A program made the translations under genes and the position numbers. A stretch of 34,037 bases of DNA, from positions 1 to 34,037 of IMG/VR virus record IMGVR_UViG_3300049983_000004; one strand, written 5' to 3'. The notes under the pieces are model-generated. The model made no database searches. It was not told the origin of the DNA and saw only the letters and a list, made by a program, of their open reading frames with translations. Of the stretch, positions 2,370 to 34,037 are shown piece by piece. The stretch's first letter is position 1. Each line of letters begins with the position of its first letter. This DNA comes from a virus. Its lineage: Duplodnaviria > Caudoviricetes.

Positions 2370-2618
2370 TTAGGCGGCCTTCTTTTCACCGTCCAACCCC
2401 GTGACCCATTCCTTGAACGATTCTTCATAGACGAGCCAGCCGATCGAGGTCGGGCCGCTGCCGGCGGTTTCGAAGGTGCCGTCCTCGCACATGTTGACGA
2501 GGGTCGCGCGGGAGAGCGGCGGGATGATGATCCGATGGATCTTGATCAGGCGCTCGATCTCGGAGAGGCGGAGTTTTGGGCGAGGATTAATATCAAACGT
2601 TTGTTGTGATTTGTGCAT
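2370..2618 (-). CDS. Small excisionase/MerR-like winged-helix DNA-binding protein (82 aa), divergent from the phage-like operon
   Basis: LSRATLVNMCEDG...GWLVYEESFKEWV resembles the Xis/AlpA/lambda Nu1 N-terminal fold pattern (by eye). Confidence 0.6.
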   Translation of the reverse strand: MHKSQQTFDINPRPKLRLSEIERLIKIHRIIIPPLSRATLVNMCEDGTFETAGSGPTSIGWLVYEESFKEWVTGLDGEKKAA

Positions 2619-2794
2619 TGTCGGTAATTCGTGGTCGGTAGTTAGTAATTAGTTGTTCGTGGTTAGAGTTTATTGTTCTTAAATGAACTCAATGAACTGT
2701 TCTACCGACCACGGACAACGAACTACGACCCAATCTTCTATTTTATCGATTCCTCCAAAGTTCAACAGATCAGAGGACATATTAAAAAGGGCAA

Positions 2795-2823: not shown

Positions 2824-3162
2824 GATAGTCGGGCCGGGAGATGCCCGGCCTTTCCCCGGCCCGGCGGACGATATATAAGAGGCGGAAGAAATAAACAAGC
2901 GAAAAACGGTTCGCCCAATATCGTCCGATTGTTATAAATATAATACACCCGTTAAGAATATCTTACAAGTGCCTATCCACCGATTTTTGGATTTTAGATT
3001 TTAGATTTTGGATTTGAAACCCTAAGCGCCCGCACGAAATGAAGAGTGCGCATCAGCAGGTGTGCGGGTTTTCCAAGATCAAGGTCAAAGTTTCAGGATC
3101 AAAATCAAATCAAAGATCAACGGTCAAAGATCAAATCCCAAACCCAAAACCCAAAAATTGAA

Positions 3163-4416
3163 ATGAGTTTCTCTGAGAAGGACAAATTAAAAGCGCTGGC
3201 GATCGTGCATATTTTCGAGACCTCGAAGGCTTTTGGCGATTACGGGGCGTGCGTGGTGCTCAATGACGGGGCCGGAGTTTCGTACGGCATCAACCAGTTT
3301 ACGCACCGGTCGGGGTCGCTGCTCGAGGTGGTGACCGCCTATTTCAGAAACGGCGGGACCCTCGGGCGGGCCGCTATCGAGGAGGCGGTGCCGCTGCTCA
3401 GGCAAAAAGGCCCGGGCGCGATCGGCGAGCTGGCCGGTGACACGCGGTTCAAAAAGGCCCTGAAGGCGGCGGCGCTGACCAGCGAGATGCGCGCCGCGCA
3501 ACACGAGATCGCCGAGAAGCGATACCTGCATCCGGCGGTGGAGGCGGCCGAGGGGTCGGGTTTTGTGCTGCCCCTTTCGCTAGCAGTTATATACGATTCG
3601 ATAAATCACGGCTCTTACGCGCGCATTCGCGACCGGGTAAAGATCTCGAAAAAGAATTATTCCTCTCTCCTGGAGTTTGAAAAGGCGTGGATCTATTCGT
3701 ATGTGAAGAACCGCGACGCGTGGCTGGAATCGGTCCCGAGGCTGGCCGTGACCGATTACCGGACCGACTTTTTTCTGGCCCAGATCGCGCGCGGCAACTG
3801 GATGCTCGAGCTGCCGGTGAACGTTCACGGGCTGAAGCTCAGCGAGGTAAGCGGCGGGCAGCGAGAGGTAAGCAGTGAAGAGCGCGGGCGGGTCGCCCAC
3901 GCAACAGCCGCCGGGTCGGCGGCGGTACAAGAAGATTCGGCGGTTGAGCCGTTAGATCAGCCCACAGAAACCCTTGCGATACCCCAAATTTCCCCTGACA
4001 CCCTGCCAGAATCCCCTGAAAACGCCCACATTACGGCTCAACCGCCGGATGTTTTCGGAGGAGCGGGTGGAGAAGAGGAGAAGAGGAGTGGAGGAGACGA
4101 GGAGACGGCTGGTTTAAATGAAAAAGGCGGAATTCTTACCCGGGCCGGCGAAGTCCTGGATACCGCGGGCTCGAAATTCGACCGGGTAAACGAGGTCGTT
4201 TCGGGGCTCGGCCAGCGCAAGGACGCGGCCAAATCGCTCTGGACGACCGTGGGAAGCACGATCTGGCAATCGGTCTGGGCGGTGATCGCTTTTATCATCG
4301 GGCTGCCCCGCGAGGTGTGGCTGACGGTGGCGGTGATCGCCGGCGCGTTCATGCTCTATTACCTTTACCGGCAGATCAGCCTGGGGAAGATCCGCGAAAC
4401 CCAGTCCAAAGTCTAA
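3163..4416 (+). CDS. Endolysin-like lysozyme/chitosanase (GH46-like) fold hydrolase with disordered linker and C-terminal TM segments
   Basis: IVHIFET...DYG..VVLNDGAGVSYGINQFT catalytic-type motif; hydrophobic C-terminus. Start moved to ATG 3163 because the upstream extension is heptamer repeat. Confidence 0.75.
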   Translation: MSFSEKDKLKALAIVHIFETSKAFGDYGACVVLNDGAGVSYGINQFTHRSGSLLEVVTAYFRNGGTLGRAAIEEAVPLLRQKGPGAIGELAGDTRFKKALKAAALTSEMRAAQHEIAEKRYLHPAVEAAEGSGFVLPLSLAVIYDSINHGSYARIRDRVKISKKNYSSLLEFEKAWIYSYVKNRDAWLESVPRLAVTDYRTDFFLAQIARGNWMLELPVNVHGLKLSEVSGGQREVSSEERGRVAHATAAGSAAVQEDSAVEPLDQPTETLAIPQISPDTLPESPENAHITAQPPDVFGGAGGEEEKRSGGDEETAGLNEKGGILTRAGEVLDTAGSKFDRVNEVVSGLGQRKDAAKSLWTTVGSTIWQSVWAVIAFIIGLPREVWLTVAVIAGAFMLYYLYRQISLGKIRETQSKV

Positions 4417-4485
4417 AGGCCAATGTCCAAAGTCACTCGTTTTTGACCTTGGACTTTGGACCTTGGCCCTTGGACTAACTTTGAA

Positions 4486-4959
4486 ATGAAACCTGTAAGC
4501 CAACAAATCACGACGGGAGGCGATGGCGACTGCCTGAGCGCTTGCATGGCAAGCTTGCTCGAGCTCGAGATCGGCCGGGTGCCGAAATTCCGGCGCGATC
4601 ACGGACCGGTAGAAATGATGCCGGCGGTGAGGAAATGGCTTAGCGAGACTTTCGGCCTGTCGCTGATCTGCGTCTATCTTGAAAAGGTCCCGGTCAAGCT
4701 CTTGGGGGCCGCGCCCGGGCAATTATGTATCGCCGTGGGCCTGAGCCCGTCGCGCGGCGGGCTGCGTCACGCGGTGGTCGGACGTCTCAGCGATGGCGGC
4801 CGGGCCTTTGAGATACTACATGACCCGCATCCCTCGGGAAAGGGGATAAGCGGCCAACCGATCGCGCTTTTTTTTCTGGTTCCGGTCGATATTGGCCCCA
4901 AATCTCGAAGTCCCAAAAGCCGCAAGTCGGACCCCTTTAAACTCAAGAGGTCATTTTGA
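4486..4959 (+). CDS. Phage-type papain-like cysteine peptidase
   Basis: Q...GDCLSACMASLL, HAVVG and HDPHP give a Cys-His-Asp arrangement. Confidence 0.6.
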   Translation: MKPVSQQITTGGDGDCLSACMASLLELEIGRVPKFRRDHGPVEMMPAVRKWLSETFGLSLICVYLEKVPVKLLGAAPGQLCIAVGLSPSRGGLRHAVVGRLSDGGRAFEILHDPHPSGKGISGQPIALFFLVPVDIGPKSRSPKSRKSDPFKLKRSF

Positions 4960-5204: not shown

Positions 5205-5423
5205 ATGCAAGATACAAAAAACATTATGCTCGCCGGTTTGAGCAGCTTGACGTCTTTTTTTGCGGTGATAGAGACGCAGACCCTTATCACTATTATTTCA
5301 GCCATTATTTTGCCGATACTTTTCTTTTGTGTCGGTAAGGCCGTGGATGTGATGGTGCAGATACGCTTTCGGCAGATGGCCGAGAGAAGGAAGACCAGGG
5401 AGATTGAATCATTGAATCAGTGA
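5205..5423 (+). CDS. Putative holin (72 aa)
   Basis: Small protein with 1-2 hydrophobic helices and a basic C-terminus, lying between the lysin and spanin-like genes. Confidence 0.55.
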   Translation: MQDTKNIMLAGLSSLTSFFAVIETQTLITIISAIILPILFFCVGKAVDVMVQIRFRQMAERRKTREIESLNQ

Positions 5424-5505: not shown

Positions 5506-5937
5506 ATGACTATTAGAGACATATTTTCACTCGCCCTGGTTGAGCTTACGCCGCGGCGGAAGATCTACCTGGCGCTGACGATCGGCGGCGCGATACTGGT
5601 GTGCGTCATGGCCGGCTCGGCGTGGTCGCATTTTACGATCCGCGGGCTCGAGCGCGATGTCCGGGCCGCGAAAGATCAGGCCGACAACAAGCAGAAGATC
5701 GCCGATGCTAAAGAACGCGAGGCCGAAAAATACCGGCTGCAGGCGGAACGGCTCGAGGGGTCTCTCGCGGAGATCCAAAAGATAGCAAAAAAACAAGATG
5801 AAGAACTGGAAAAAATTTCTGATCAAACGGGTAATGCCCGCAATGATGCTGCTCGGGCTCGCGGCGTTCGGGCACTGGACAGCACGAGCGCAGAACTCTG
5901 CCGGCGGCTCGAAGAGCTCGGACACGGGTGTAATTAG
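5506..5937 (+). CDS. Inner-membrane spanin (Rz)-like protein
   Basis: N-terminal TM, long coiled coil and two C-terminal Cys; position in the lysis cassette. Confidence 0.6.
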   Translation: MTIRDIFSLALVELTPRRKIYLALTIGGAILVCVMAGSAWSHFTIRGLERDVRAAKDQADNKQKIADAKEREAEKYRLQAERLEGSLAEIQKIAKKQDEELEKISDQTGNARNDAARARGVRALDSTSAELCRRLEELGHGCN

Positions 5938-6382
5938 TCCAAGGTCCAAGGTTCAAGGTTCAAAGTCGGAAGACCGTAGCGCCGCCGACCCGGCAGCTGT
6001 CGTGGGAGCGACCCCCTCCCACCTTACTACACCCGACGACCTTCAAAAACTAATAAATTCCTGCGCTGCCGCGGTCGAGGACCTGGCGAAAACCCGGATA
6101 CTCGTTGACGCGCTGGAAAGGGAGAATGGCCTATTAAAAGAAAGGCTCGAGACGGAGAAGAGGACCTCGGGGGTACTGCTTGAGCTGAACGAGACGAGGA
6201 AAGCGGAGGCTTTGTCTTTAAGGGAGACGGTCGCGGCCAAGAACGAGACGATCGTCGCCAAGGACGGGGTGATCGCCGCCCAGGACAAGCTGATCGAGAC
6301 GCTGAAAAAGAAAAAGACGTCGCCGTTGAAGCGGGTCCAGGATGTGCTGATCGGGGTGGCGTTGTTTGCGTTGTTCAGGTAG
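5798..6382 (+). CDS. Secreted coiled-coil protein overlapping the Rz-like gene (Rz1-position partner)
   Basis: 140-nt overlap in the +1 frame; signal peptide (ARA-Q), coiled coil and hydrophobic C-terminus; no lipobox Cys. Confidence 0.6.
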   Translation: MKNWKKFLIKRVMPAMMLLGLAAFGHWTARAQNSAGGSKSSDTGVISPRSKVQGSKSEDRSAADPAAVVGATPSHLTTPDDLQKLINSCAAAVEDLAKTRILVDALERENGLLKERLETEKRTSGVLLELNETRKAEALSLRETVAAKNETIVAKDGVIAAQDKLIETLKKKKTSPLKRVQDVLIGVALFALFR

Positions 6383-6799: not shown

Positions 6800-8311
6800 G
6801 TGCGCCGTGGTAATTCAAATCGAAAATCGAAAACCGAAAATCCAAAATCGAAAGAACTTCCCGATTTCCCGGACTGGCTCAAACAGGTTTCCCCGCACTG
6901 GACGTGGAATTGGGCGCACCAGATCTATCTATACGAAAAGCTCGCGATGGTAACCACCGGACAATGTAAAAGGCTGATGATCTTTATGCCGCCGCGGCAT
7001 TCGAAATCGGAGACCGTCACCGTCCACTACTCGGCCTGGCGGCTGGAGCGCGAAGAGCATTTGAACATCATCCTCGGAAGCTATAACCAAAAACTGGCCA
7101 ACCGTTTTTCGCGCCGGATCAAGCGCCTGGCCGAAACCAGGCTTCCCATCTCGTCGGAGCGCAAGGCGTCAGAGGAATGGGAGACCAAGGCGGGCGGGGG
7201 TGTCAGGGCGGTCGGGGTGGGCGCGGGCGTTACGGGGTTTGGGGCGAAGCTGATCATGATCGACGACCCGGTGAAGAACCGCGCGCAGGCCGAAAGCGAG
7301 CGCTGCCGCGAGAATTGCTGGGATTGGTTTAACGACGATATCTATACCCGGCTCGAACCCGGGGGCGCGATAATCCTGACCCAGACGCGCTGGCATGACG
7401 ACGACCTGGCCGGCCGGCTGATCAGGGAAATGAAGGAAGAGGGGGGAGAGGATTGGACGGTGGTGAATTTACCGGCGCTGGCGGAAGAAACTGGTCCTGA
7501 GTGTAGCGCCGCCGACCCGGCGGCTGTATCGGAGGGCGACTCGCCCTCCGTCCGCGTTGAAGAAAGGGTGAGGGCGGGTCGCCCTCACGACAGCCGGCGA
7601 GTCGCCGGCGCTACGGGTGATCCTCTCGGTCGCGAACCCGGCCAGGCGCTTTGCCCGGACCGGTATGACGAGGAGGCGCTTCTCCGGATCAAAAACAAAC
7701 TCGGCGCATACTCGTTTGCCGCGCTCTACCAGCAGCGGCCGATCCCGCACGAGGGAGCGCTGTTCAAACGGAAGTGGTTTACCGGCAAGATCGTGGACAA
7801 GGCGCCGAGGGGCCTGACCCGGTGGGTGCGCGGATACGACCTGGCCGTCTCGACAAAGACGAGCGCCGATTACACGGCGTCGTTCCGCTGCGCCTATGAC
7901 AATGACGGCAACCTGTTTATCGCCGACGGCTTTCGCGAGCGGATCGAGTATCCCGAGCAGCGGCGGTATGTCGTGGGCCGGATGACCTCGGAGAAAAATA
8001 CCGAGCACGGCATAGAAAAAGCGCTGCACGGGCAGGCGTTCGTCCAGGACCTGAGGCAGATGCGGCAGGTGCGGGGCGTGCCCTTCAAGGCGGTCAGGGT
8101 CGAATCGGACAAGTATACGCGGGCACTAGCGTGGGCGAACCTGGCCGAGGAAGGACGCGTGTACCTGGTGCAGGGCGCGTGGATAAACGCGTTTTTGGAC
8201 GAGATATGCCGGTTTACGGGCCGCGGGGATGCGCATGACGACCAGGTCGACGCGGTGAGCTTGGCGGTCGGGTTATTGGCCAAGCCGAGAGGCAAATCGT
8301 TTGGATGGTAG
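6800..8311 (+). CDS. terL: Phage terminase large subunit
   Basis: MPPRHSKSE (Walker A), LIMIDDP (Walker B), QTRWHDDDL, YQQRP, and nuclease motifs GYDLA and HDDQVDA. Start codon uncertain. Confidence 0.95.
   Translation: MRRGNSNRKSKTENPKSKELPDFPDWLKQVSPHWTWNWAHQIYLYEKLAMVTTGQCKRLMIFMPPRHSKSETVTVHYSAWRLEREEHLNIILGSYNQKLANRFSRRIKRLAETRLPISSERKASEEWETKAGGGVRAVGVGAGVTGFGAKLIMIDDPVKNRAQAESERCRENCWDWFNDDIYTRLEPGGAIILTQTRWHDDDLAGRLIREMKEEGGEDWTVVNLPALAEETGPECSAADPAAVSEGDSPSVRVEERVRAGRPHDSRRVAGATGDPLGREPGQALCPDRYDEEALLRIKNKLGAYSFAALYQQRPIPHEGALFKRKWFTGKIVDKAPRGLTRWVRGYDLAVSTKTSADYTASFRCAYDNDGNLFIADGFRERIEYPEQRRYVVGRMTSEKNTEHGIEKALHGQAFVQDLRQMRQVRGVPFKAVRVESDKYTRALAWANLAEEGRVYLVQGAWINAFLDEICRFTGRGDAHDDQVDAVSLAVGLLAKPRGKSFGW
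7503..7614. repeat. Palindromic REP/MITE element (family A) inserted in frame in terL
   Basis: GTAGCGCCGCCGACCCGGCGGCTGT...ACAGCCGGCGAGTCGCCGGCGCTAC with internal hairpins; translates as SAADPAAVS...RRVAGAT. Confidence 0.9.
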
Positions 8312-8417: not shown

Positions 8418-9839
8418 ATGAATAACGACATAGAAACAGCACTAAAGAATTTCCGTACATCGAGCGACCGTTACCGTAAAGCGGAGCGATATTACAAGGG
8501 CGATCACGACCTGGCGTTTGCCACCGAGAAGTTTAAGAACGCCTTCGGGTCGATGTTCCGCGAGTTTGCGCTGAACCTTTGCCCGGCCGTTTGCGATGCC
8601 GTGCGGGACAAGCTGAAGGTTCGCGAATTCCGCGTCGAACAGGGCGGCGGCACTCTTTCGACCGACGCCTGGCGGATCTGGCAGAACAACCGGATGGGCC
8701 GGCGCTCGGGCGAGGTCCACAAGGAAGCGGTCAAGAACGGCGACGCTTATGTGATCGTCTGGCCGAACGCGCGGGGCGAGGTGACCATCTACCCGAACAA
8801 GGCCGGGATGTGTACCGCCGTCTATGACGAGGAGACGCCGGGCCGCGTGCTATGGGCGGCCAAGCACTGGCGGACGCCGGATAAACGCGTGCGACTCAAC
8901 CTGTTTTACCCGGACCGGATCGAGAAATATATCTCGAAAGCGGCGAGCGAGAATACGCTGCCGGATGCCAAGGAATTCATGCCGTATGCCGAAGGCCGTA
9001 GCGCCGCCGACCCGGCGGCTGTATCGGTGGGCGACCCGCCCACCGTGCGGAAGCGAGTCGCTTCCGCGACAGCCAGCGAGTCGCTGGCGGTACAATCGGA
9101 AGGCTCCATTATTCCAAACCCGTACGGCATTGTTCCGGTGTTTCATTTTGCCAATAACGCGGATATCGGGGCGGCCGGCCAATCGGAGCTGGAGGCGGCG
9201 ATGCCGGTGCAGGACGCGCTAAATAAATCGGTGCTGGATATGCTGGTGGCGATGGAGTTTGCCAGCTACCGGCAGCGCTGGGCGGCCGGGATCGAGATCG
9301 AATACGGCGAGGACGGCGAGCCTATTCCACCGTTCAAGGCCGGGGTGGACCACCTCTGGATCACCGAGAACCAGGACGCGAAATTCGGCGATTTCGAAGC
9401 GGCCAACCTCGAACAATTCCTCAAGGTAAAGGACAGCTTCCGCATGGACATGGCCTGCGTTACGGGCACGCCGATGTACTACTTTATGCAGGTTTCAGGC
9501 GATTTTCCCTCGGGCGAGGCGCTCAAGAAGGCCGAGTCGCGGTTTATCGCCAAGGTGCGCGACCGGCAGGAGAGCTTCGGCCAGGTCTGGGAAGACGTGA
9601 TGGCGTTTGCGCTCGCTTTGGAAGGGAAGACGGACGCCCGGTTGTTTGCCGATTGGGAAGACCCGGCGCCACTCTCGGAAAAGGAAAAACTCGAGAACAT
9701 CGCTGTGAAAAAAGAGCTCGGCCTCTCGGACGCGCAGGCGCTGATCGAGGCGGGCTACGGCGAGGTGGACGTCGAGAGGATCATGGGCGAGAAACAGGCC
9801 TCGGCGGACCGGCTGGTGGAGGCGTTTAATGCCGGGTAG
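8418..9839 (+). CDS. Phage portal protein, SPP1 gp6-like
   Basis: RYYKGDHD, NLCPAVCDA, GDAYVIVW, PNPYGIVPVFHFAN, QDALNK and SGEALK motifs; follows terL. Confidence 0.92.
   Translation: MNNDIETALKNFRTSSDRYRKAERYYKGDHDLAFATEKFKNAFGSMFREFALNLCPAVCDAVRDKLKVREFRVEQGGGTLSTDAWRIWQNNRMGRRSGEVHKEAVKNGDAYVIVWPNARGEVTIYPNKAGMCTAVYDEETPGRVLWAAKHWRTPDKRVRLNLFYPDRIEKYISKAASENTLPDAKEFMPYAEGRSAADPAAVSVGDPPTVRKRVASATASESLAVQSEGSIIPNPYGIVPVFHFANNADIGAAGQSELEAAMPVQDALNKSVLDMLVAMEFASYRQRWAAGIEIEYGEDGEPIPPFKAGVDHLWITENQDAKFGDFEAANLEQFLKVKDSFRMDMACVTGTPMYYFMQVSGDFPSGEALKKAESRFIAKVRDRQESFGQVWEDVMAFALALEGKTDARLFADWEDPAPLSEKEKLENIAVKKELGLSDAQALIEAGYGEVDVERIMGEKQASADRLVEAFNAG
8998..9093. repeat. Family A element (96 bp) in frame in the portal gene
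   Basis: Near-identical to the intergenic copy at 25142-25236. Confidence 0.92.
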
Positions 9840-10103: not shown

Positions 10104-11432
10104 ATGACGATCGAAGAATTTCTAAAAAAAGTAAACCAGGACCGCATTAAACGCGAGGAGCGCATGACCCGCCGGCTGCTCGCGGAATACCGGCGGTTGG
10201 ATAGAGCGTTGACGAATGCCTATCGGAAAGAAGGGGAGACAGGGAGAAAAGGAGAAGGGGAGACGGGGAGAAAGGGAGACGGGGAGAACCACCCCGGCGC
10301 TGAAGGGCCACCCCTCGCACGTCACGAGGGGAGCTCGGAGGGCTTGGCTAAACGCAGGCGGTTAAAGGGATTACTTGATAAGGTGAGGGCGGAGGTCGGG
10401 AAGTTTGGCAGGCAGGCCTCGGCCATTATCGCGCAGGGCCAGCAGGACGAGATCGAATACCAGAAAAAATCGGCCCGGAAGCTTCTCCAGCTGCTCGGGA
10501 TAGAGAGGGCGAAAATTCCGCCGAGCGGACCCGAAAACGCTCCCGGCACGATGGGCGACGGATCGAAGCTTACCGATTATTTCAGTAAAAAGCTGGCCGG
10601 GCTGGCCGCGGACAGGGTTAGGCAGGCGGCGTCGAATTCCGCCGCGGCGAAACCCAAGGGGGTCTTGAAAAAGCTGAAGGCAAGCCACGGCATCCTGCTT
10701 AGCCGGGCCCTGACCGCCGCGCGGACCGAGACCATGCGCGCCGCCCGCCAGGCCGCGCATGATATCTACAGGGAAAACGGCATTACGGAGTGGACCTGGC
10801 ACGCGCAGCTGTCGCCTACTTCCTGCGCCTTTTGCCTCTCACGGCACGGCACCCTTCACCCTATCAGCGAGCCGCTCCTGTCGCACCCGCGCTGCAGATG
10901 TATAGCCAAACCGGTCGGGGCCGGACTAGGGAGGACCGAAGCCGAGCGCGTGGAAAGAAGGTATAATGAGATCACGCGATTCGGTCATGCGGTCCAGCGG
11001 CACGGGGCGGAAATCACCTGGCAGCAGCTGCACGACCGGGCGGTGCTCGGTTACGACCCGATGACCGGTTCGAGGGTCGACGGGGTTCACGGCGGGGACC
11101 ATCCACCGACGCGGCACGCTACCCGATTTGAGACCAGGGCGGCCTTTGTAAAAGCCGAGGAAACTGTCCGCGCTTCGCAGGAATTCCGCGATGAGATCAC
11201 CGCCGCTTCGAGGGAGGGTAGAATGTATGCGCCGGTCAAGACGATCACGCTGGAAAGGATTTTTGGCGCCGGTTATCTGAGCCAGGTATCGGGCGTCATG
11301 AGGCGCGGCAGCTTTAATGCTCCCACCGGCTGGGACCCGACCGATTTCACCGACGGCGTGATCATTTCCCTGTTCAAGCTGGACGGCGACGAGTGGAAGC
11401 TTTACACGATGTATCCGGGCGTTAAGCCCTAA
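10104..11432 (+). CDS. MuF (SPP1 gp7-like) minor head protein with C-terminal putative RNase toxin domain
   Basis: ARTETMRA, W.W.A.....C..C...HG and HPRCRC MuF motifs. The extension GHAVQRHG...L.DR...ATRF...LYTMYP resembles CdiA-CT RNase A-like/EndoU-type toxins. Confidence 0.85.
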   Translation: MTIEEFLKKVNQDRIKREERMTRRLLAEYRRLDRALTNAYRKEGETGRKGEGETGRKGDGENHPGAEGPPLARHEGSSEGLAKRRRLKGLLDKVRAEVGKFGRQASAIIAQGQQDEIEYQKKSARKLLQLLGIERAKIPPSGPENAPGTMGDGSKLTDYFSKKLAGLAADRVRQAASNSAAAKPKGVLKKLKASHGILLSRALTAARTETMRAARQAAHDIYRENGITEWTWHAQLSPTSCAFCLSRHGTLHPISEPLLSHPRCRCIAKPVGAGLGRTEAERVERRYNEITRFGHAVQRHGAEITWQQLHDRAVLGYDPMTGSRVDGVHGGDHPPTRHATRFETRAAFVKAEETVRASQEFRDEITAASREGRMYAPVKTITLERIFGAGYLSQVSGVMRRGSFNAPTGWDPTDFTDGVIISLFKLDGDEWKLYTMYPGVKP

Positions 11433-11477
11433 AAGTGCGTTGAGTTTATTGAGTTTCTTGAGTTTGTTGTGAAGAAT

Positions 11478-15352: not shown

Positions 15353-15381
15353 CGAATTCCGTAAAAAGCGAATCCTTAGAT

Positions 15382-24712: not shown

Positions 24713-24811
24713 TTTATAGAGTTCATTGAGTTCATTGGGTGATTGAGTGATTGATTCAATCACTCATTCTTCCAATCTCTCAATGATTCAATGACTCAAT
24801 CACCAATTGAT

Positions 24812-25132: not shown

Positions 25133-25241
25133 TCTTAGATTGTAACGCCGCCGACCCGGCGGCTGTCCGGTGGGCGACCCGCCCACCGTGCGGAAGCGAG
25201 TCGCTTCCGCTACAGCCAGCGAGTCGCTCGCGGTACAAAAA

Positions 25242-25601
25242 ATGAAAGCCGAGACCTACCAAAACCTGACCACCGGCGCGCTCGACCGGCTCCGCATACA
25301 GATCTTCGGTGACGAATCGTTAAAACTGTTTCAGATCACACCGGAGACCGGCGAGGCCGAGGTGGCCGAGTTTACCGAAAACTGGGGAGGCCGGCGGCTC
25401 GTTGCCACAACCGATGCCGGACGCGCCGAGGCGGGCGCCTGGCAATTCCAGGTAAAGGCCGACGACGATTGGCAGACCTCGCAAACCTACATGTCGCAGG
25501 TGGTCGCACTTAGGGTGGGCGGCCGGCGATGGAAAGTGAAAAAGATCGAAACACCGGTCGGGAACGTGAGGGTGTGGAAATTGAAGGCGGAGGTGCAGTG
25601 A
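25242..25601 (+). CDS. Putative head closure protein
   Basis: Beta-rich 119 aa ending GGRRWKV...VWKLKAE; synteny. The N-terminal extension in the ORF track is family A repeat. Confidence 0.6.
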   Translation: MKAETYQNLTTGALDRLRIQIFGDESLKLFQITPETGEAEVAEFTENWGGRRLVATTDAGRAEAGAWQFQVKADDDWQTSQTYMSQVVALRVGGRRWKVKKIETPVGNVRVWKLKAEVQ

Positions 25602-25692
25602 GTGATTGACGGATTGACTGATTGAATCATTGATTCATTGAATCATTCTTCCAATCACTCAATCCCTCAACCACTCAATAACTCAATGACCA

Positions 25693-26070
25693 ATGCTTGA
25701 CATAAAAGTCGACAACAAAATTCCCGAGTTGTTCCAGAAGCTCGAAGCCGCGGTTTCCAGGTTCGTCCAAACCTCGGCCGCCGATCTGGGCGATGCGGCG
25801 CGGGCTGCGATGGGCGGGCCGCGATCGGGCCGCCTGTATGGTTCACACCAGGCGTCGGCCCCGGGCGAGCCGCCGGCCAGCCGGTCGGGCAAATACCTTT
25901 CCGGCATCGAGATACTGGAGGGCAGCAGCCTGGAGGCCAAGGTCGGCGCGAGTGTTTCTTACGCCCCGATCCTCGAATACGGGCTTAACCGGCCGCTGTG
26001 GAGCAAGGTCCTGACCGAGGCGCTGCCGACGCTCGAGACAAAGCTCGCCGATGAGATCGCTGGACTATGA
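25693..26070 (+). CDS. HK97 gp10-like neck/tail-completion protein
   Basis: HQASAPGEPPA..SG, YAPILEYG and RP motifs. Confidence 0.8.
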   Translation: MLDIKVDNKIPELFQKLEAAVSRFVQTSAADLGDAARAAMGGPRSGRLYGSHQASAPGEPPASRSGKYLSGIEILEGSSLEAKVGASVSYAPILEYGLNRPLWSKVLTEALPTLETKLADEIAGL

Positions 26071-26255
26071 AGGGAAATAATGAGCGCCGCAGGGAAATGA
26101 GCTGCACGCGGAAACGGGCTTTTCAAACCGAGAATTATGCTGCGATGTACCTTGAAAATGTATTAAAACGCGCGGGCGAAATGGATGTTTACCGCTGCGG
26201 ATTCTGTAAAGAGTTTCATCTGGGCCACGGCCGTAGACTTGAGAAGAGGAGATGA
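26067..26255 (+). CDS. Small Zn-finger-like phage protein
   Basis: C..K..F...YRCGFCKEFHLGH; ATGA overlap with the upstream gene. Confidence 0.6.
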   Translation: MKGNNERRREMSCTRKRAFQTENYAAMYLENVLKRAGEMDVYRCGFCKEFHLGHGRRLEKRR

Positions 26256-26382
26256 TTCGATTTTGGATTTTAGATTTTGGATTTTGGATTGGAAGAAAGA
26301 AGACCGGAATCCGGTGTTACAAATGGGTATCAACTACCGCACCAGTACGAAATCCAAAATCTAAAATCCAAAATGGATATAT

Positions 26383-26832
26383 ATGGATAAACAGATACGT
26401 TTAGCGCTAAAACTGATCATCGCCACCCTCTACCCCGAGGCGCGGGTGTTTGCCTGGAATGCGCTCTCGCACGATCTGGGCGAATGGGCCGGTATGTTTC
26501 GCGGTGCCTCGGGCGGCACTCACGGCTGGATCATAAAGCGCTCCGGCGCCAGGGCCGAATGGAAAAACGGCCGCCGCGACCGCAAGACCGCCATCTACGA
26601 TGTGTGGGGATTCTACGCCTTTAACGCCGGTAACGAGGAAGCGAATTCCGATAACGAGTTTGCGGAGATCCTCGACGCCGTGTACGAGGCCGTAAAGATG
26701 AGCCCGACCCTTGAGCTATCGAGCGTCGAGGGCCACTCACTTCTGCAGATCGCCGCCAACACGACGATCGATACCGGCGAGGAGACCCTGCATTTTGCCC
26801 AGGGCAGATTAGAGGTAAAACTGTGCTGTTAG
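26383..26832 (+). CDS. Putative tail terminator protein
   Basis: 149 aa, immediately before the tail tube gene. Confidence 0.6.
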   Translation: MDKQIRLALKLIIATLYPEARVFAWNALSHDLGEWAGMFRGASGGTHGWIIKRSGARAEWKNGRRDRKTAIYDVWGFYAFNAGNEEANSDNEFAEILDAVYEAVKMSPTLELSSVEGHSLLQIAANTTIDTGEETLHFAQGRLEVKLCC

Positions 26833-26952: not shown

Positions 26953-27993
26953 ATGAGAACTGAAAATACCCAAATAGCAATTTCCACCGTGTGCGAATCG
27001 TCTTTCAACACGCCGAAAACCAGCGCCAGCGATTTCGAAGGCCTGCCCACGACCGAGCCCTTTTTTCTTCTTCCGAAGGTTGAAAAGGTAAACGACGGGG
27101 GCCGTGTCGGCCGCAACGCCCCGACGCATCTCTGCAATACTTACTGGTCGCACGGCGAGGTCTCGATCAAGGACGATGTCGACACCAATGTGCCGGCGAA
27201 GCTTCTCCGGCGCGCGCTCGGCGGGGCATCGACCCCGACGGCCGTTGCCGCCGGCGTTTTCGATCACAACTTTACCATCCTGCCGCCGCAGCTGGGCGAC
27301 GTTCTGCCTTCGTTCAATATTGTGGCGATCCTCGGCGCGTCGGATTTCCTGCTTTCCGGCTGCATGACCGACACCATCAAGTTCAGCCAGAAAAACGCCG
27401 ATCGCGTGCAGTATGAGGCAAACCTGGTCGGCAGCGGCAAATTCACAAGCCCCTCGGCCATCACTCCCTTTCCGGCGATGGCGAACACGCCCTGCATGGA
27501 CGGCTTCAAGGTCGAGGTGAAGTATACGGACGTCGACGCGACGGTCGTCAATCTCTCTACCCTCGGCAAAGTGGTCGAATGGATGGTAGAGCATAAAAAT
27601 AATATCCGCCGCGACAAGCGCCGGACCGGCGACCCGATCCAAACGATCACGAATGTAGGAAGCGCGGCCCACGCCCGCAAGCAGCCCCGCGGAAAGTATG
27701 AAACGACGGCGCAGGTCACCGTGGATTTTAACGATCTTTCGGACTGGAACAAGTCGATAAAGAACGAGCAGCTGACCAATCTGAGCTTTCTTATCCCGGG
27801 CCCGCAGATCGGCACCACCATTTATCGTCACGAATTCGAGATCATCATCCCGCTGTTCAGCTTCGAGACGCCCGACACCGGCGACGACGACGGCGACGCG
27901 ACGACGCCGATCAACATCATTTGCCTGGAAGATCCGGTAACCAAAGGGACCATGAAAGTGCGGATCAGGAATGCGACGTCGACGCTCGCGTAG
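26953..27993 (+). CDS. Major tail tube protein
   Basis: 346 aa, beta/Thr-rich; E.SFNTP start, HNFT and GC.......S motifs; synteny. Confidence 0.8.
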   Translation: MRTENTQIAISTVCESSFNTPKTSASDFEGLPTTEPFFLLPKVEKVNDGGRVGRNAPTHLCNTYWSHGEVSIKDDVDTNVPAKLLRRALGGASTPTAVAAGVFDHNFTILPPQLGDVLPSFNIVAILGASDFLLSGCMTDTIKFSQKNADRVQYEANLVGSGKFTSPSAITPFPAMANTPCMDGFKVEVKYTDVDATVVNLSTLGKVVEWMVEHKNNIRRDKRRTGDPIQTITNVGSAAHARKQPRGKYETTAQVTVDFNDLSDWNKSIKNEQLTNLSFLIPGPQIGTTIYRHEFEIIIPLFSFETPDTGDDDGDATTPINIICLEDPVTKGTMKVRIRNATSTLA

Positions 27994-28088
27994 CGGCCGG
28001 TCCAAAGTCCGTAGTCCAAAGTCCAAAGTCGGACGAACGCTTTTGACCTTGGACTTTGGACCTTGGACCTTGGACTCTTGAGAAAATT

Positions 28089-28316
28089 ATGCCAAAAAAA
28101 ACAACAAAAACAACCGAAGAACTGACCGAGGAATTCTTTGCGTTCGAGCGCACTGAATATGAAAAACGGGTGCCCGCGGCGTTTCCGCGAGTACCGGTAA
28201 TGGCGCTGGCCGAGTTAAGCGAGCTACCGGATTTTGAAGACAGCCCCGCGGAACCGGAACCGCCGGAAGTGCCAATGGAAGAACTGCCCCTGGTGAAACC
28301 GGGGCTCAAGGTTTAG
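28089..28316 (+). CDS. Small acidic Pro/Glu-rich protein (75 aa)
   Basis: ORF between the tail tube and chaperone genes. Confidence 0.5.
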   Translation: MPKKTTKTTEELTEEFFAFERTEYEKRVPAAFPRVPVMALAELSELPDFEDSPAEPEPPEVPMEELPLVKPGLKV

Positions 28317-28431
28317 CCGGTTTTGGATCTTTGACCTTTGATCTTGGACCTTTGATTCTTCCTTTAAATTACCGTCAGCTAAAGCAGACGGCAATTTAAA
28401 CCGGAAACGCGAACAGAAGGAGATAATAATT

Positions 28432-29292
28432 TTGAACGAAGAAGTTTTGGAACAGAACCACCCCGGCGCGGACGCGCCACCCCTCCTCGATAAGGAAGGG
28501 AGCTTAGAAACAAACCCAGCGCTCGCCGGCGCGCCGCCCCGCCTGGCCGGGAAGGGGAACGCAGAGCGCGGGCAGGATGCCCCCGATACTGCCCGCGCGC
28601 CTGCGGCGCTGCAGCCAACCGGCTACAAGCTGGACTGGCAGGATGCCGAAATCCGCCTTGCCAAAGGGCGGTTTACACACACGCTCTCGCGGCCATCCGC
28701 GGAAATGATGATCGCGCGCGAGGACGAGCTCCAGCCCGAAATACCGATCGCCAAAGACGGGAGCTTTGCCCTGCCGGATTCGACCGCGCAGGAGGAAACC
28801 GACGCCAGGTATTACGACCGGATCGTCATAAAAACCGAGGGTTACACCGCCGAGATACCGACCGCTCACAAGGCGGCCGCCTTCCAGGGGCTCTTTCGCC
28901 GCGAGATCTATCTCGACCCCGGGTGCGATATCTTCGGCGCCGAGGTCACGGTCCTGGAAGAGATCGGCGGCGGGGAAGAGCCGGATTTCACCATCCGTCA
29001 CACCCTGCGCCAGCCGACCGAGGCCGAGCTAAAAAAATGCCGGCAAGGTTCGTCCGGCGGGCGTCTTTTGCCCGACAAGCGCGGACGGCAAAAGCTCGTC
29101 ACCTCGTCGAACCTTCGCTCGGCGATGCGCTTTTACAACACCTGGCTGGTCAGGGTCGAGGGCGCTACCGTCGGCGGAAACACCTTCTCCCCCGATAAAC
29201 GGGACGAGTTTGTCGCCCTGGTCGACCCGCTTATCCAGCGCAAGGTCGTCACCGTTTTGGTCGACGAGCTGACCGGCGGATTATTGGACTAG
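28432..29292 (+). CDS. Tail assembly chaperone (gpG position)
   Basis: Position between tube and tape measure; AGGAG RBS before TTG; two similar H.L..P(S/T)AE subdomains. Confidence 0.7.
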   Translation: MNEEVLEQNHPGADAPPLLDKEGSLETNPALAGAPPRLAGKGNAERGQDAPDTARAPAALQPTGYKLDWQDAEIRLAKGRFTHTLSRPSAEMMIAREDELQPEIPIAKDGSFALPDSTAQEETDARYYDRIVIKTEGYTAEIPTAHKAAAFQGLFRREIYLDPGCDIFGAEVTVLEEIGGGEEPDFTIRHTLRQPTEAELKKCRQGSSGGRLLPDKRGRQKLVTSSNLRSAMRFYNTWLVRVEGATVGGNTFSPDKRDEFVALVDPLIQRKVVTVLVDELTGGLLD

Positions 29293-29810: not shown

Positions 29811-32800
29811 ATGGCTGACCTAACTATTTCAATCTCACTCGACGCTTCGGGTCTTACTTCGGGTATTCAAAATGCGAGATCCGAGATGGAATCGCTTGCC
29901 CGGACCAATCTTGCCGCCCTCGGCGGACAGTTCAAAAATATCGGCGAGAGCATAAAGGCCGCGGGCGAAAAGATCAGCGGTTTCGGGCAATCGCTCACCT
30001 CGAGCCTGACCGGGCCGCTTGTGCACCTCGCGGAGATGGGCCTCGGGTTTTCGGCCATGCGCGAGCGCGCCGAGCTTTCTTTCTCGGTCCTCCTGGACAG
30101 CGGCGAAAAGGCCAAGGCCCTGATGGCCGATCTGACCTCCTTCGCCGATGCGACCCCCTTCGAGTCGCAGGAGATCATCGATGCCGGTAAAAAACTGGTC
30201 TCATTCGGCGTCGACGCCAAAGACGTAAAAGGTATCCTGACCGATCTGGGCGACACGGCCGCCACGATGGAGGTAAATATAACGGACGTCGCGAGCGCTT
30301 TCGGCCGTCTCAAGGCCGGTGATTTCGGCGAGGCGTTCGAACGGTTTCGCGATTTCGGCATCTCCCGCGAAATGCTCGAGGGCCAGGGGCTCAAATTCGA
30401 CAAATCCGGCCAGTTCAAGGGAAGCGTGGACGAGGCCATGAACGCCGTGCGCGCCGTGATGAAAGACAAGTTCGGCGGCACGATGGACAAGCTGTCCGAT
30501 TCGGTCTCCGGCAAGCTGGCCACGCTCGCGGACAAGGCCAAGGGGCTGCTCGTAAAGCTTTTCGAGCCGGTCCAGCCGGCCCTTGCCCAATCGCTCGACT
30601 ACCTTATCAAGGTGGTCGAAAACGTCATTACATGGTTTGAAAACGCGCCGGCCGGGGTAAAAGTATTCATCCTGGTGCTGGGCGCGCTCGCCGCCGCGAT
30701 CGGCCCGGTGCTGGTCGTGCTCGGCACTATCGTAACGGCTGTCGGGGCGTTTATATCCGCCATCGGCGCGATTGCCGCGGGCGGCACGGCCGCCGTCGTG
30801 ATCGCCGCGATCGCCGCCGCCATCGGTATTCTGGTCGCCGGGATCGGCATTGCTATCGGTGTCGTCTACGCCCTGAAAGAGGCTTGGGATAACGGCTTCG
30901 GCCCGATCGCATCGGTCGTCGCCATTGCCGTCGGACTGATCCTGACCGCCATTTCGCCCATCCTAGGCCTGCCCATCCTGATCGGCGCGGTCGCGATGAC
31001 CATCTACGAGATGTGGGCGACCAATTTCGGCGGGCTGCAGGAATTTACCGCCGTACTCTGGGCCAAGGTCCAGGAATATTTCAACATCGCGATGACCGCT
31101 ATCAAGCAGCTGGTCAACGATATCGGCGGCGACGTCATCGCCTGGTGGACTGAAAATTACCCGCTTATCCAGCAGACCGTCCAGACCGTATCCGATGCGA
31201 TGCGCGCCTATATCCAGAATTTTCTCAATGCGGTTAAGGCTTTCTGGGACCTCCACGGCGAGCAGATCATGTCGGTCGTCAAATCGATCTGGACCATTAT
31301 CTCGACCGTCGTGCGCACCGGCGTAAACGTTATTCTCGGCGTGGTCCGGATGGTAATGCAGATCATCAACGGCGACTGGGCCGGCGCCTGGAACACAGCC
31401 TTAAGTATCGTTCAGAAGATCAACAGCGCCATTTGGAAGGTCCTCGGCGAGCTCGGAAATATCGTCGTCAAGGCCCTGGCGTTCGTCCTCACCGAGATCG
31501 CGAGCCTGGCGACCAGGGCCGCTACGCAGGCAGCCAGGATCGGCGAGAATATCGTCAACGGCATTATAAACGGCATCTCGTCGCTGGCCGGCAGCCTGAA
31601 GAATTACGCCAGGTCTCTTATCACCAGCATGTTCGGCGTGATGAACAACGCCGCCGAGACGCGCTCGCCCTCGATGGTCACGACCCGGATGGGCATGTTT
31701 ATCGGCCTCGGCCTGGTGAACGGGCTTAATAATGCCGCCCCGCTGGTAAACACGGCGGCGAAAAAGATGGTCGAATCGTCGCTGGGCAATATGGGCAAGG
31801 AGGCGAAAAAGGCGGTCAAGGAATTTCAGGACCTGGCCGGCTCGACCGCGCAGCAGCGGCAGGATACCGTAACCATCGCGCAATTCGGCGAGGGTAAATC
31901 CCATCTCGACGAGCTGATCAAGCTCCGCGCCGAGCTCAACCAAAATGTCAGCCAGGCGCTGCCCAAGACGCTGGCCGGCGTCAACGACGAGCTGAAAGAG
32001 CTCGGCAAACAAAAACAGGGTATAAAGGACGCCGCCGACATGCTGGCGCAGTTCGACGAGCAGATCGGCAAGATCAAAAATAAGGACGTCCGCAAGAGCA
32101 ATCTCGACCGCGCCAACGAGCTGTTGGCCGACCCGGTCCGCTCCCGGGGCATCGCCGACGGCGGCGTCGAGCTAAGGAAAAAAGCCGCGGAGCTCGATGA
32201 GCTTTCCCGCGTCCAGGCCATCACGGCGGCGCGTGAAAAAATGAACGCATCCGTGGCCGGCGCCAACCAGCAGCTGGCCGATGAGATCGCCCTGCTCGAA
32301 GCCAAAAAAGCGAAGAATTTCGAGATGACCGCTGCCGAGCAGCAGGCTTTCCAACAGAATTTAAAGAACGCCGAAGAGCTCAGGAAATTTCGCGAGAGCC
32401 TCGAAAAAGACGGCCTGAATAAATCGGATATCGACGGCCTGGTCGAGGAAATGCAGCGCCAGCAGGCAGCGGTCGAGCAGCTGAAGGAGTCCAAAGCGTC
32501 GCTCGAGGCGCAGGACAAGCTCTATACCGATACCATGGGCGGTATGAATGCGACCCTCGCCGAGCTGAACCAAAAACTCGCCGGTAATACCCAGCTGACC
32601 GAGGCCGATACGCTTGCCAAGATCAAGCTGACCGAGGCTTACGCGGGGCTCACCGCCGAGCAGAAAAAGAACCTCGAGGACAAGGCCAAAGAGGTCGCGA
32701 AAAAGAGGGAACAGGTCGAGGACTTTGAAAAGGCCAAAAAACAGATGGAGGAATTCAAGGGCTTTATCAAGGATTCGCTCAACACCCTGGTCAACGACGG

Positions 32801-34037
32801 CTTCGGCGCGATGTTCAAGAGTATCTTCGATAAATTCAAGAAGATGCTGATCGATATGGCCGTCGAGTGGATCACCTCCAAGCTCTATAAGTTGATCTTC
32901 AAAGACGGCCAGGCCTCGGGCTCCGGCGGAGGGGCCGGCGGGATACTCCAGTCGTTCCTCGGGTTCCTCGGGATCGGTAAAAAAGGCTCCGGCGCGGCGG
33001 GTTCGGATGGCGGCGGCGGTTCGGACGGTGGCGGTAAGGTCGGCAGTTTCGGCGGGTTATTCGACCCGATCAAACCGATCTTCGGCGGGAAAAACGCCGC
33101 GCCCAGCCAGCTGGCCGGCACGATGAGCGGTATCGGGGCCCTCGCTACCCTGGCCGGCAGCATGATCGGCGGCCGGGTCGGCGGAATCATTTCGATGGCC
33201 GGCACGGGCATGTCGATCGGCGCCATGTTCGGCGGCCCGGTCGGGGCGGCCATTGGCGCCGGGGTAGGCGCGCTGGTCGGGCTCTTTATGGGCGACCCCA
33301 AGAAAAAGATCGACAAGAAAGAGAACATGCCCAAGCTGCAAAAAGGCTTTACCGATGCCATGCAGCAGCTGCGCGATCTGATGAACGACCGCAACGCGCT
33401 CTTCGGCGACCCCGAAGGCGCCGTGGCCAAGGCGATGGAGATCCGCGGGGCGATAGCCTCGGGTTTCGGCATCGAGTTCCAGTCGAAGAAGTATAAGAAA
33501 GAGGCCGCGGGCATGATCGCCTCCAAGCTGGTCGAGGCCGACCAATTGATCAAGCAGATCAAGGAAATGGCCGACATGGCGCGCGCGGCGAACAGCGTAA
33601 ATACCCGGCTCGAGGCCGAATTCGCGACCGGCGTATTTGCCGACCGGGCGTTCATCCGGCAGCACACCAACTTCAAACGCCGCAACGGGCTGCTCGCCGG
33701 CGGCTGGACCGGACGCGACACGCTGCCCTCGATGCTCGCGGCGGGTGAGATGGTGCTCAATCCGAAACAGATCGACCGCGTCAGGTCCAATGCCGGGTTC
33801 GACGCCTTCCGCGGCGCCGGTATCCCGAACTACGCCTCGGGGACCTTTGTCGGCCCATCGACCAGTGCCGCTCCCGCTCCGGCAGCCGCGCCGGTGATGG
33901 TCCAGATCGTGCTCAACAATTCGGGCATCGTCGAATCGGACATCAAGGGCGTGCTGGTAAACGGCCTGAAACAGCCGGACGTCCAGGTCGAGCTCGTCAA
34001 GGCTTACGACAAGGGCAAGACGCGGGCGAGGAATTGA
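29811..34037 (+). CDS. Tail tape measure protein (1408 aa)
   Basis: FADATPFE tape-measure domain, hydrophobic TM stretch, periodic Trp/Phe repeats with GDW.GAW, coiled coil, and C-terminal G.DTLPSML..GEMVLN. Confidence 0.93.
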   Translation: MADLTISISLDASGLTSGIQNARSEMESLARTNLAALGGQFKNIGESIKAAGEKISGFGQSLTSSLTGPLVHLAEMGLGFSAMRERAELSFSVLLDSGEKAKALMADLTSFADATPFESQEIIDAGKKLVSFGVDAKDVKGILTDLGDTAATMEVNITDVASAFGRLKAGDFGEAFERFRDFGISREMLEGQGLKFDKSGQFKGSVDEAMNAVRAVMKDKFGGTMDKLSDSVSGKLATLADKAKGLLVKLFEPVQPALAQSLDYLIKVVENVITWFENAPAGVKVFILVLGALAAAIGPVLVVLGTIVTAVGAFISAIGAIAAGGTAAVVIAAIAAAIGILVAGIGIAIGVVYALKEAWDNGFGPIASVVAIAVGLILTAISPILGLPILIGAVAMTIYEMWATNFGGLQEFTAVLWAKVQEYFNIAMTAIKQLVNDIGGDVIAWWTENYPLIQQTVQTVSDAMRAYIQNFLNAVKAFWDLHGEQIMSVVKSIWTIISTVVRTGVNVILGVVRMVMQIINGDWAGAWNTALSIVQKINSAIWKVLGELGNIVVKALAFVLTEIASLATRAATQAARIGENIVNGIINGISSLAGSLKNYARSLITSMFGVMNNAAETRSPSMVTTRMGMFIGLGLVNGLNNAAPLVNTAAKKMVESSLGNMGKEAKKAVKEFQDLAGSTAQQRQDTVTIAQFGEGKSHLDELIKLRAELNQNVSQALPKTLAGVNDELKELGKQKQGIKDAADMLAQFDEQIGKIKNKDVRKSNLDRANELLADPVRSRGIADGGVELRKKAAELDELSRVQAITAAREKMNASVAGANQQLADEIALLEAKKAKNFEMTAAEQQAFQQNLKNAEELRKFRESLEKDGLNKSDIDGLVEEMQRQQAAVEQLKESKASLEAQDKLYTDTMGGMNATLAELNQKLAGNTQLTEADTLAKIKLTEAYAGLTAEQKKNLEDKAKEVAKKREQVEDFEKAKKQMEEFKGFIKDSLNTLVNDGFGAMFKSIFDKFKKMLIDMAVEWITSKLYKLIFKDGQASGSGGGAGGILQSFLGFLGIGKKGSGAAGSDGGGGSDGGGKVGSFGGLFDPIKPIFGGKNAAPSQLAGTMSGIGALATLAGSMIGGRVGGIISMAGTGMSIGAMFGGPVGAAIGAGVGALVGLFMGDPKKKIDKKENMPKLQKGFTDAMQQLRDLMNDRNALFGDPEGAVAKAMEIRGAIASGFGIEFQSKKYKKEAAGMIASKLVEADQLIKQIKEMADMARAANSVNTRLEAEFATGVFADRAFIRQHTNFKRRNGLLAGGWTGRDTLPSMLAAGEMVLNPKQIDRVRSNAGFDAFRGAGIPNYASGTFVGPSTSAAPAPAAAPVMVQIVLNNSGIVESDIKGVLVNGLKQPDVQVELVKAYDKGKTRARN

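Follow-up and report, generated by a model that had tools for sequence, protein, structure and literature searches.

The window analysed here, a 34,037-base stretch that makes up the entire virus-database record IMGVR_UViG_3300049983_000004, contains lysis, packaging, head and long-tail genes of a tailed phage divided by a block of host-like genes, and very probably represents a domesticated locus, that is, a set of virion and lysis genes fixed in the chromosome and inherited with the host. Gene comparisons indicate that the locus descends from a Mu-like transposable siphophage whose transposition module and candidate small terminase (TerS) gene it no longer has, and that it likely shares one origin with a tail-less module that is near-core in a Pyrinomonadaceae genus. 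An initial annotation of the sequence had proposed a particle resembling a gene transfer agent (GTA); that the locus works in this way, packaging and transferring host DNA, we judge to be evenly balanced. The domestication part of the proposal is supported by fixed host neighbours in five assemblies, by low ratios of nonsynonymous to synonymous substitution rates (dN/dS) and by the near-core sister module, whereas the tail-less state of the widespread form, the transposable parent and the history of the large terminase (TerL) had not been foreseen.

Most probably the record is part of a longer chromosomal sequence, because a 204-kb contig also carries the window's capsid protein, letter for letter identical. 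The taxon labels of the closest records agree with the acidobacterial host suggested initially and place it in the Pyrinomonadaceae (Acidobacteriota). The nearest intact relatives are Mu-like transposable siphophages of this family (G300, G301, G302, G303 and a prophage in G294), which combine late genes as in the window with a transposase-like gene of 575-581 amino acids (three of four scanned match rve) and with genes for an AAA_22 ATPase, a Gam-like protein and a repressor. Queries with the transposase, ATPase and Gam proteins matched phage loci but neither the window nor any module locus, and the repressor of the intact relatives has no match in the window. With DDE transposase, AAA ATPase, Gam and repressor present in all five intact relatives, the window thus lacks the gene set of an active Mu-like prophage. 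Pfam and PHROG scans of 44 chosen open reading frames (ORFs) of the window (of 119 with at least 70 amino acids, mostly shadows) likewise returned no transposase family and, as the initial annotation had stated, no integrase, replication gene or CI-type repressor. Directly left of a small regulator gene, where the intact relatives have repressor and transposase, the window and the related locus L164 carry host-like genes, in line with the earlier remark that ordinary host genes adjoin the lysis module. Attachment (att) sites and an integrase, named earlier as findings that would speak against domestication, were never to be expected because the parent is a transposable phage; a tyrosine integrase is absent from all five virus records tested. 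A repressor homologue lies near two of 40 modules, together with an ImmA homologue; a repressor homologue and an IrrE/ImmA-type peptidase survive beside a minority of modules (L008:1649-2143 and the modules of G140 and G236).

Two further genes separate the intact phages from the window. Immediately before TerL they carry a gene of 177-199 amino acids, which its position alone makes a candidate TerS and whose profile has no match in the window or in its relatives L162, L163 and L164. The intact phages also have a gene after the capsid that is missing from the window and the modules.

The phage block is cut between MuF and scaffold, as described initially, by 10.56 kb of mixed-strand host-like genes that reach from 11765 (end of the ORF after MuF) to 22330 (scaffold) and include a tRNA-Glu (18128-18202) and an RRM gene. 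The same host gene set lies directly before the scaffold in four other assemblies (~85-93% nucleotide identity over most aligned blocks) and in the more distant L211 (tail tube 84%), and both junctions of the split are found on a single contig in two assemblies (L162/L125/L116 and L164/L126). Misassembly, which was to overturn the domestication reading, is contradicted by this recurrence. Read depth in the matching sample is ~6-11 and similar for phage and host parts, and the contigs listed for that sample agree with the window; they stop at repeats, and none among them spans 11786-11933. The expectation of variable intervening host genes holds for the left half of the insert but not for the right half (SMI1 to the gene at 21653), which is largely shared with the relatives. 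The same host neighbours around the split in five related assemblies, together with the fixed neighbourhoods of the tail-less modules described below, support vertical inheritance. The tRNA-RRM stretch is matched in 149 of 151 family genomes, at no more than 79% over long matches and with no close genome among them, and no 14-mer of the tRNA-Glu recurs in the window as an att-like duplicate would.

Most virion genes of the window have dN/dS values of 0.06-0.34 against relatives, well below 1 as had been anticipated for a maintained locus. Against close relatives the ratio is 0.09-0.13 for the capsid, 0.10-0.11 for the tail tube (four relatives), 0.10-0.18 for the portal, 0.06-0.33 for the neck genes and 0.17-0.34 for the tape measure; exceptions are MuF (0.53) and one small ORF at the tail-chaperone position (up to 0.60). 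The synonymous divergence (dS) to four close relatives is mostly 0.2-0.5, like that of the interleaved host genes. These values indicate that the virion genes of the window, including those of the tail, are under purifying selection.

The widespread form of the locus is a module of lysis and head genes. Counts of relative loci given here refer to 80 loci, the best of 98 that genomes yielded for the capsid, nearly all of them from records labelled Pyrinomonadaceae, Pyrinomonadales, Blastocatellia, Chloracidobacterium sp. or Acidobacteria. In these 80 loci the capsid gene is accompanied by the scaffold (75), the first neck gene (77), the portal (64), the holin (59), the lysin (57) and the small regulator (57), and by MuF and tail genes in a single case, the tailed prophage L077. 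Tail genes are equally rare (1/60) when loci with at least 4 kb after the capsid are considered. The host gene trmFO adjoins the module in 34 of the 80 loci, often with xerC, and the lysis-portal block is inverted in 13 of 64. The XerC beside the module was considered as an integrase and rejected, as it passes the XerC cut-off and belongs to a host trmFO-xerC neighbourhood; integrase or replication genes as neighbours were found in none of the 80 loci.

The prevalence of the module was determined in 151 species-representative genomes, at least 80% complete, of the genus of G001, which is probably GTDB OLB17; one of them, G175, is unpublished, and none of the conclusions hinges on it. Capsid was found in 121 genomes, portal in 120, TerL in 119 and recA in 140, and the module is mostly single-copy. 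The tail tube was matched in four genomes and the gene following the tape measure, weakly, in 14; three strong tube matches adjoin second capsids of 58-62% and thus belong to ordinary prophages. In the family sample 17 of 151 genomes match, only four of them at 70% or more, and in the class sample the portal occurs in 26 of 201 genomes, 22 of which come from the genus sample. Among five near-complete genus genomes, four lack the transposase and the fifth has a separate prophage; a search of the same five with four queries for an unrelated tail elsewhere gave real matches in G182 (its own prophage) and one weak 21% match in G236. For pairs with dS of 0.05-1.5, the median dN/dS is 0.15 for the capsid (575/741 pairs), 0.22 for the portal (160/561), 0.26 for TerL (41/91) and 0.06 for recA (907/2415). 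Single-copy conservation, one of the tests suggested by the initial annotation, is mostly seen for the module, which is near-core in the genus, but not for TerL, which is neither single-copy nor tree-congruent.

Several lines of evidence make it likely that the window form and the tail-less module share one origin. The portal tree unites the 20 genus modules in one clade (100/99) and the four window-type loci in another (100/100), and both together exclude 13 phage or prophage rows (89/94), in five of which the presence of a transposase was checked. Both forms have lost Gam, the gene after the capsid and the full-length candidate TerS, and both have a leader of ~90 nucleotides before the lysin that is found in 61 of the 80 loci (window 2856-2959, plus strand). 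This leader, a likely regulatory RNA, folds into a two-helix hairpin with a near-invariant UAAG internal loop; six of the 15 pairs have changed on both sides and 96% of the cells are paired, which is above shuffled and slid controls. The window's hairpin taken alone folds no better than shuffles (z -0.79), so that the case for the leader rests on covariation. The leader has no Rfam match and none in the intact phage loci searched. It occurs once per genome in three of five genomes, weak remnants precede four orphan TerL copies, and none precedes the window's scaffold; these observations reveal no common regulon joining the split parts.

TerL has followed a course of its own. Only 24 of 57 informative loci have it within the module, yet it was found in 114 of 121 capsid-positive as opposed to 5 of 30 capsid-negative genomes. 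In G001 it lies 1.14 Mb from the capsid and adjoins a copy of the small regulator; this distant TerL and the 10.5 kb split of the window fit the GTA feature of genes spread over several loci. Most of the distant TerL copies are long frames that begin with ~70 residues matching the candidate TerS at its N-terminus, and the corresponding N-terminal profile matches 86 of the 151 genus genomes, mostly inside TerL-sized frames, about a dozen matches being full-length prophage genes. The catalytic motifs of ATPase and nuclease persist in 28-32 of the 32 TerLs from modules and in 15-26 of the 26 distant copies, a set in which truncation at locus ends and frameshifts are common. G202 has seven TerL copies at ~82-92% nucleotide identity, with likeness ending at or just past the stop codon, and G268 has two at 96%. 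The duplicated loci (L090, L094, L098, L101, L105, L109 and L113 in G202; L087 and L097 in G268) occupy scattered sites, and no transposase was seen beside the duplicated copies. A more distant family of full-length candidate TerS genes (L350-L357) occurs in eight genus genomes, some of them without the module, and represents a second group of related prophages.

Gene by gene, the Pfam and PHROG scans confirm the earlier description of open, co-oriented lysis, packaging, head and long-tail genes in canonical order. At the left end a small divergent gene on the minus strand (2370-2618; 82 amino acids) is likely an HTH_17/excisionase-like regulator retained from the parent phage; it is matched in 57 of the 80 relative loci and has an atlas lead to PF12728 (0.91; cluster with 40% carriers), with no Pfam or PHROG match. 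All phage genes that follow are on the plus strand. They begin with an endolysin of the GH46 family bearing a C-terminal membrane segment and a repeat inserted in frame (3166-4416; PF01374, 2e-16; repeat D12 at 3878), a phage-family gene with a match to phrog_5845 and none in the relatives' loci (4456-4959), a small membrane protein named holin-like by position (5205-5423; 59/80 loci), and two overlapping spanin-like genes (5506-6382), of which the first is Rz-like (5506-5937; phrog_739, 8.5e-7; 48/80 loci) and the second is assigned by position (5798-6382; 49/80 loci). TerL (6800-8311; phrog_38, 4e-100) has intact ATPase and nuclease motifs and an in-frame repeat insert in its linker, and the SPP1 gp6-like portal (8418-9839; phrog_104, 4e-94) has such an insert as well.

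To the right of the host-like insert follow a weakly matched capsid scaffold (22330-22860; PF06810, 3e-5; phrog_194, 9e-4; 75/80 loci), the major capsid protein of 283 amino acids (23272-24123; PF25209; phrog_267, 3.5e-69), whose closest phage counterparts are capsids of Bacillales and Clostridium phages at 43-58%, and a stretch with a phrog_1084 gene and four neck genes (24236-26832), namely adaptor (24791-25132), stopper-like (25242-25601), HK97 gp10-like (25693-26070) and terminator-like (26383-26832), all four of which are present in the intact phages. Holin, second spanin and the four neck genes have no informative Pfam or PHROG family match and owe their names to position. The tail part comprises a siphophage tail tube (26953-27993; PF18906, 4e-5; phrog_290, 4e-10), two ORFs placed by position at the tail-chaperone site (28056-29292; conserved in relatives and phages, no family match) and a tape measure protein of ~1408 amino acids (29811-34037; phrog_58, 1e-35) whose stop codon is the end of the record. 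In L116, L117, L118 and L211 the tail genes continue past the tape measure, and the window's tail is therefore cut by the record end and not by decay. The gene after the tape measure in L116 (L116:16885-17961) has a C-terminal Hint-like domain (PT-HINT, 1e-5).

The insert itself (genes at 11927-21922, mixed strands) encodes a choice-of-anchor-Q beta-helix protein, SMI1/KNR4 and DUF559 proteins and small membrane proteins besides the tRNA-Glu and the RRM protein, and contains a short four-helix ORF of the 23S rRNA IVP family (13434-13655) that is likely a fragment. Upstream of the RRM gene, ~210 noncoding nucleotides (~18640-18870) are conserved at 72-79% along with this gene in many Pyrinomonadaceae genomes; they have no Rfam match and are possibly a structured 5' leader. 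Four relatives, but not the window, carry a three-gene unit at differing insert sites, consisting of an ECF (extracytoplasmic function) sigma factor, a protein of 270-365 amino acids and a protein that is metallophosphoesterase-like by motif (L162:3428-5246, L164:10120-14016, L117:228-3290, L211:2066-5264).

Repeats pervade the window. The claim that they fill most junctions between phage genes is borne out by 16 of 19 non-overlapping junctions with a repeat of at least 20 nucleotides, 11 of the 19 having one that is common to the window's host-like parts, and the scaffold-capsid gap given earlier as about 410 bp measures 411 bp. At least ten families of degenerate tandem repeats of 7-9 nucleotides, often as inverted pairs, occupy most spacers, and the contig depth over these repeats is tens of times the single-copy level. 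A family of GTAG-ended palindromic repeats, which we take to be REP-like, is confined to the phage-derived blocks (3878, 5976, 7503-7614, 8998-9093, 23083-23257, 25142-25236, 28562), with several copies in frame within genes. In-frame repeats are found inside the lysin, second spanin, TerL, portal and chaperone-position genes, and of 32 gene alignments that show a net change in length, 25 preserve the frame (the loci overlap and are not independent).

The gene directly after the portal (10104-11432, plus strand) encodes a MuF-domain protein (PF04233 above the curated cut-off), which the initial annotation had listed as a plain head gene; it is more likely a toxin fusion. Window MuF and that of L163 are 72% identical over residues 1-273 and unrelated beyond, so that the MuF protein likely carries a swappable toxin tip. 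The window's tip has an atlas lead to an RNase A-like CdiA-CT domain (PF18431 at 0.90 by features, TM 0.63) and is followed by a small ORF of 98 amino acids (11469-11765, plus strand) that from its position after the tip is likely the cognate immunity gene (79% match in L163, no family match), and the L163 tip has a weak HNH match below the cut-off and is followed by a SUKH-type SMI1/KNR4 gene. The MuF of the tailed prophage L077 contains an intein (PF14890; L077:6693-8894). Of three close relatives with contigs covering the site, L163 has MuF and L162 and L164 lack it; because MuF is missing there and in the tail-less modules, it is dispensable and not the reason why the locus is kept.

Production of GTA-like particles could proceed as follows. 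From the promoter region, which has the retained small regulator and the RNA leader, the lysis-packaging block would be turned on in a part of the cells; TerL, no longer tied to a sequence-specific TerS, would cleave the chromosome at numerous sites; heads would fill by the headful route; and particles would be set free by lysin, holin and spanins. Particles of the window's lineage would be equipped with a long tail of their own; a filled head of the tail-less genus would depend on a tail borrowed from elsewhere or on a different route of uptake. Mu-type phages package straight from the chromosome, and a parent of this type would have been pre-adapted. Passages of PMC5977238 describe host DNA at both genome ends of Mu-type phages. 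For known GTAs, passages of PMC11841831 report that the DNA-binding domain of TerS is missing, that the Caulobacter agent CcGTA has no known TerS, that non-specific packaging is tied to the loss of this domain or of TerS, and that the particles consist of head plus tail. The window, where the candidate TerS has no match, would agree with this pattern of TerS loss; the genus form fits less well, being tail-less and retaining the other half of that candidate.

A number of observations count against a domesticated, GTA-like locus. Tail genes were not found in 147 of the 151 genus genomes, and of the neck genes the first is kept in 77 of the 80 loci and the other three in one, leaving the widespread form without tail, stopper and terminator and thereby without the head-plus-tail build of GTAs. 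What survives of the candidate TerS in the genus is its N-terminal, expected DNA-binding part fused to TerL, the reverse of the pattern in RcGTA, and the candidate itself is identified by position, having no PHROG or family match, no fold match in PDB or viral libraries and a model with a mean pLDDT of 66. Among close relatives the dS of TerL exceeds 1 as compared with 0.2-0.4 for the portal, which suggests that TerL has been exchanged and points to replacement of the window's TerL by a paralogue. In the capsid tree the intact phage L121 nests within the window clade. The left flank visible for the window's host is 2.4 kb only, and a search turned up no longer one for the window clade, so a distant transposase is possible. 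One recA clade of nine sampled genomes is without the module. Congruence of gene trees with the species tree, also suggested at the outset, is partly seen: of 36 splits, only 11 are common to the recA and capsid trees, which is far above chance (shuffled mean 0.23); five shared splits are strong, and four conflicts are strongly supported. In 13 genomes trmFO and recA share 2 of 10 splits and capsid and recA 3 of 10, making the congruence test weak either way; because even these two host genes agree so little, single-gene trees are too noisy to show more than a mainly vertical descent of the module, which is how we read them. Reportedly, domesticated defective prophages, i.e. orthologous prophage remnants with some likeness to this locus, are under purifying selection too, including remnants of no assigned use.

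These points leave room for other explanations. The module might be a helper-dependent, site-started transducer whose heads are filled from a few fixed starts, the dispersed copies of TerS part and TerL, and whose tails are borrowed from related Mu-like phages. Retention of the adaptor gene while the tail was lost, related tailed prophages in the same genus, the TerS part inside mostly TerL-sized frames in 86 of 151 genomes, the multiplication of TerL in G202 and G268 and the precedent of phage-inducible chromosomal islands that form capsids (cf-PICIs; passages of 10.1101/2025.02.11.637232) all suit this idea. We nevertheless consider it unlikely, as the module has no integrase or replication genes and its nearby recombinase is the host XerC, the stopper-like gene is lost, four of five near-complete genomes show no helper tail or transposase, and the idea is inapplicable to the window with its own tail and no TerS part. 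A tail is not needed if the late operon is a device for programmed lysis, killing a subpopulation to release DNA or vesicles, or for disturbing related Mu-like phages through faulty packaging or lysis that comes too early. Conservation is as strong for lysis genes and leader as for head genes, and the genes are homologous to those of phages infecting the same genus, but lysis alone would leave both the co-retained, catalytically intact distant TerL and the selection on a whole tail in the window clade unexplained, and module-bearing genomes still hold related prophages (G224, G230, G294); such a role, too, is improbable.

The initial annotation had offered a toxin-delivery particle as an alternative, a host weapon in which MuF takes a polymorphic antibacterial tip into competitors. 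This idea has a real basis in the MuF tip, which is exchanged between the window (RNase A-like lead) and L163 (HNH and SMI1), each time followed by a small or SUKH-type gene, in a layout as in the MuF toxins treated in passages of PMC5576092, and the gene that follows the tape measure has a Hint-like domain at its end. It becomes quite unlikely in view of the loss of MuF from two of three close relatives, its presence in one of 80 genome loci, and a TerL that delivery of a toxin would not need. If the locus were instead a cryptic prophage in slow decay and of no present function, with the window as an earlier and the tail-less module as a later stage, the stepwise losses (early genes, TerS candidate, MuF, tail), the repeats inserted into genes and spacers, the nine-genome clade without the module and a few broken copies in the genus sample would be natural. 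Retention in ~80% of 151 species representatives, near-saturated dS, median dN/dS of 0.15-0.44, conserved catalytic motifs, a covarying RNA leader and the frame-keeping length changes make decay very unlikely. Hardly any probability remains for a misassembly, or for an ordinary active prophage with its early genes just beyond the record: the record is a virus-database excerpt and the sample contigs listed break at repeats without bridging 11786-11933, but the same junctions recur in independent assemblies at ~85-93% nucleotide identity over most blocks, and host-like genes stand in the window and L164 where intact relatives have repressor and transposase. An extended form of the domestication reading would see an independently evolved acidobacterial GTA that arose from a transposable phage and is now met at two stages, a tailed one in the window's lineage and a tail-less, near-core one in a genus of >150 species, in which scattered, self-duplicating TerS-part/TerL fusions provide several packaging starts and heads borrow Mu-like tails; as a whole we hold this scenario to be unlikely.

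As to known systems, the locus and the Mu-like siphophages named above have regulator, lysis, TerL, portal, MuF, scaffold, capsid, neck and tail genes that are homologous and identically ordered, but these phages have DDE transposase, AAA ATPase, Gam, repressor, the pre-TerL and the post-capsid gene and are without the RNA leader. In tailocins the tail is retained and the head lost, whereas the genus module has lost its tail and retained head, motor and lysis genes. cf-PICIs carry their own integrase and replication genes. Like cf-PICIs, which according to passages of 10.1101/2025.02.11.637232 form tail-less, DNA-filled heads able to take phage tails, the genus module has a matching gene content, but they are mobile and package their own DNA, and the module is fixed, has lysis genes and is without integrase and replication genes. 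MuF polymorphic toxin systems, as presented in passages of Jamet et al. 2017 (PMC5576092), likewise have muF beside the portal, with a toxin-like C-terminal domain that varies, and a small ORF downstream; here, by contrast, the locus is immobile, MuF is dispensable and the toxin is predicted.

With the GTAs (RcGTA, CcGTA, BaGTA, Dd1, VSH-1 and VTA; viriforms in the ICTV classification) the locus has in common, as far as passages of PMC11841831 go, replication-less packaging, head, tail and lysis genes, vertical inheritance, a distribution over several loci and, if the candidate is TerS, the absence or reduction of this protein. It differs in its host phylum, its SPP1-type portal and scaffold, its Mu-like transposable parent and a commonest form that is tail-less with multiplied TerL. 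It appears to behave like a GTA in the genomic features open to a test, but we do not file it as one, since packaging and transfer are predicted and the tail-less form fails the head-plus-tail feature. No earlier description was found in the literature searched; subscription papers and most supplements lay outside the search, and prophage tables of metagenome-assembled genomes could list the loci. Passages of Eichorst et al. 2018 use 'gene transfer agents' generically and report no prophage in two subdivision 4 isolates, and in passages of the Avs2/Upx preprint the family is mentioned only for a terminase-sensing defence protein. How far GTAs have spread outside the Alphaproteobacteria is described as open in passages of PMC11841831, as homology cannot separate GTAs from dead prophages.

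The locus presents a strong sequence-level GTA candidate in an abundant soil and wastewater lineage, in which the phages of origin, an intermediate with a tail and an end form without one can all be compared. This would make it possible to test whether a Mu-like phage that loses its small terminase becomes a packager of host DNA, what benefit a tail-less head and motor may bring the host, and for what reason a terminase gene should multiply in the chromosome.

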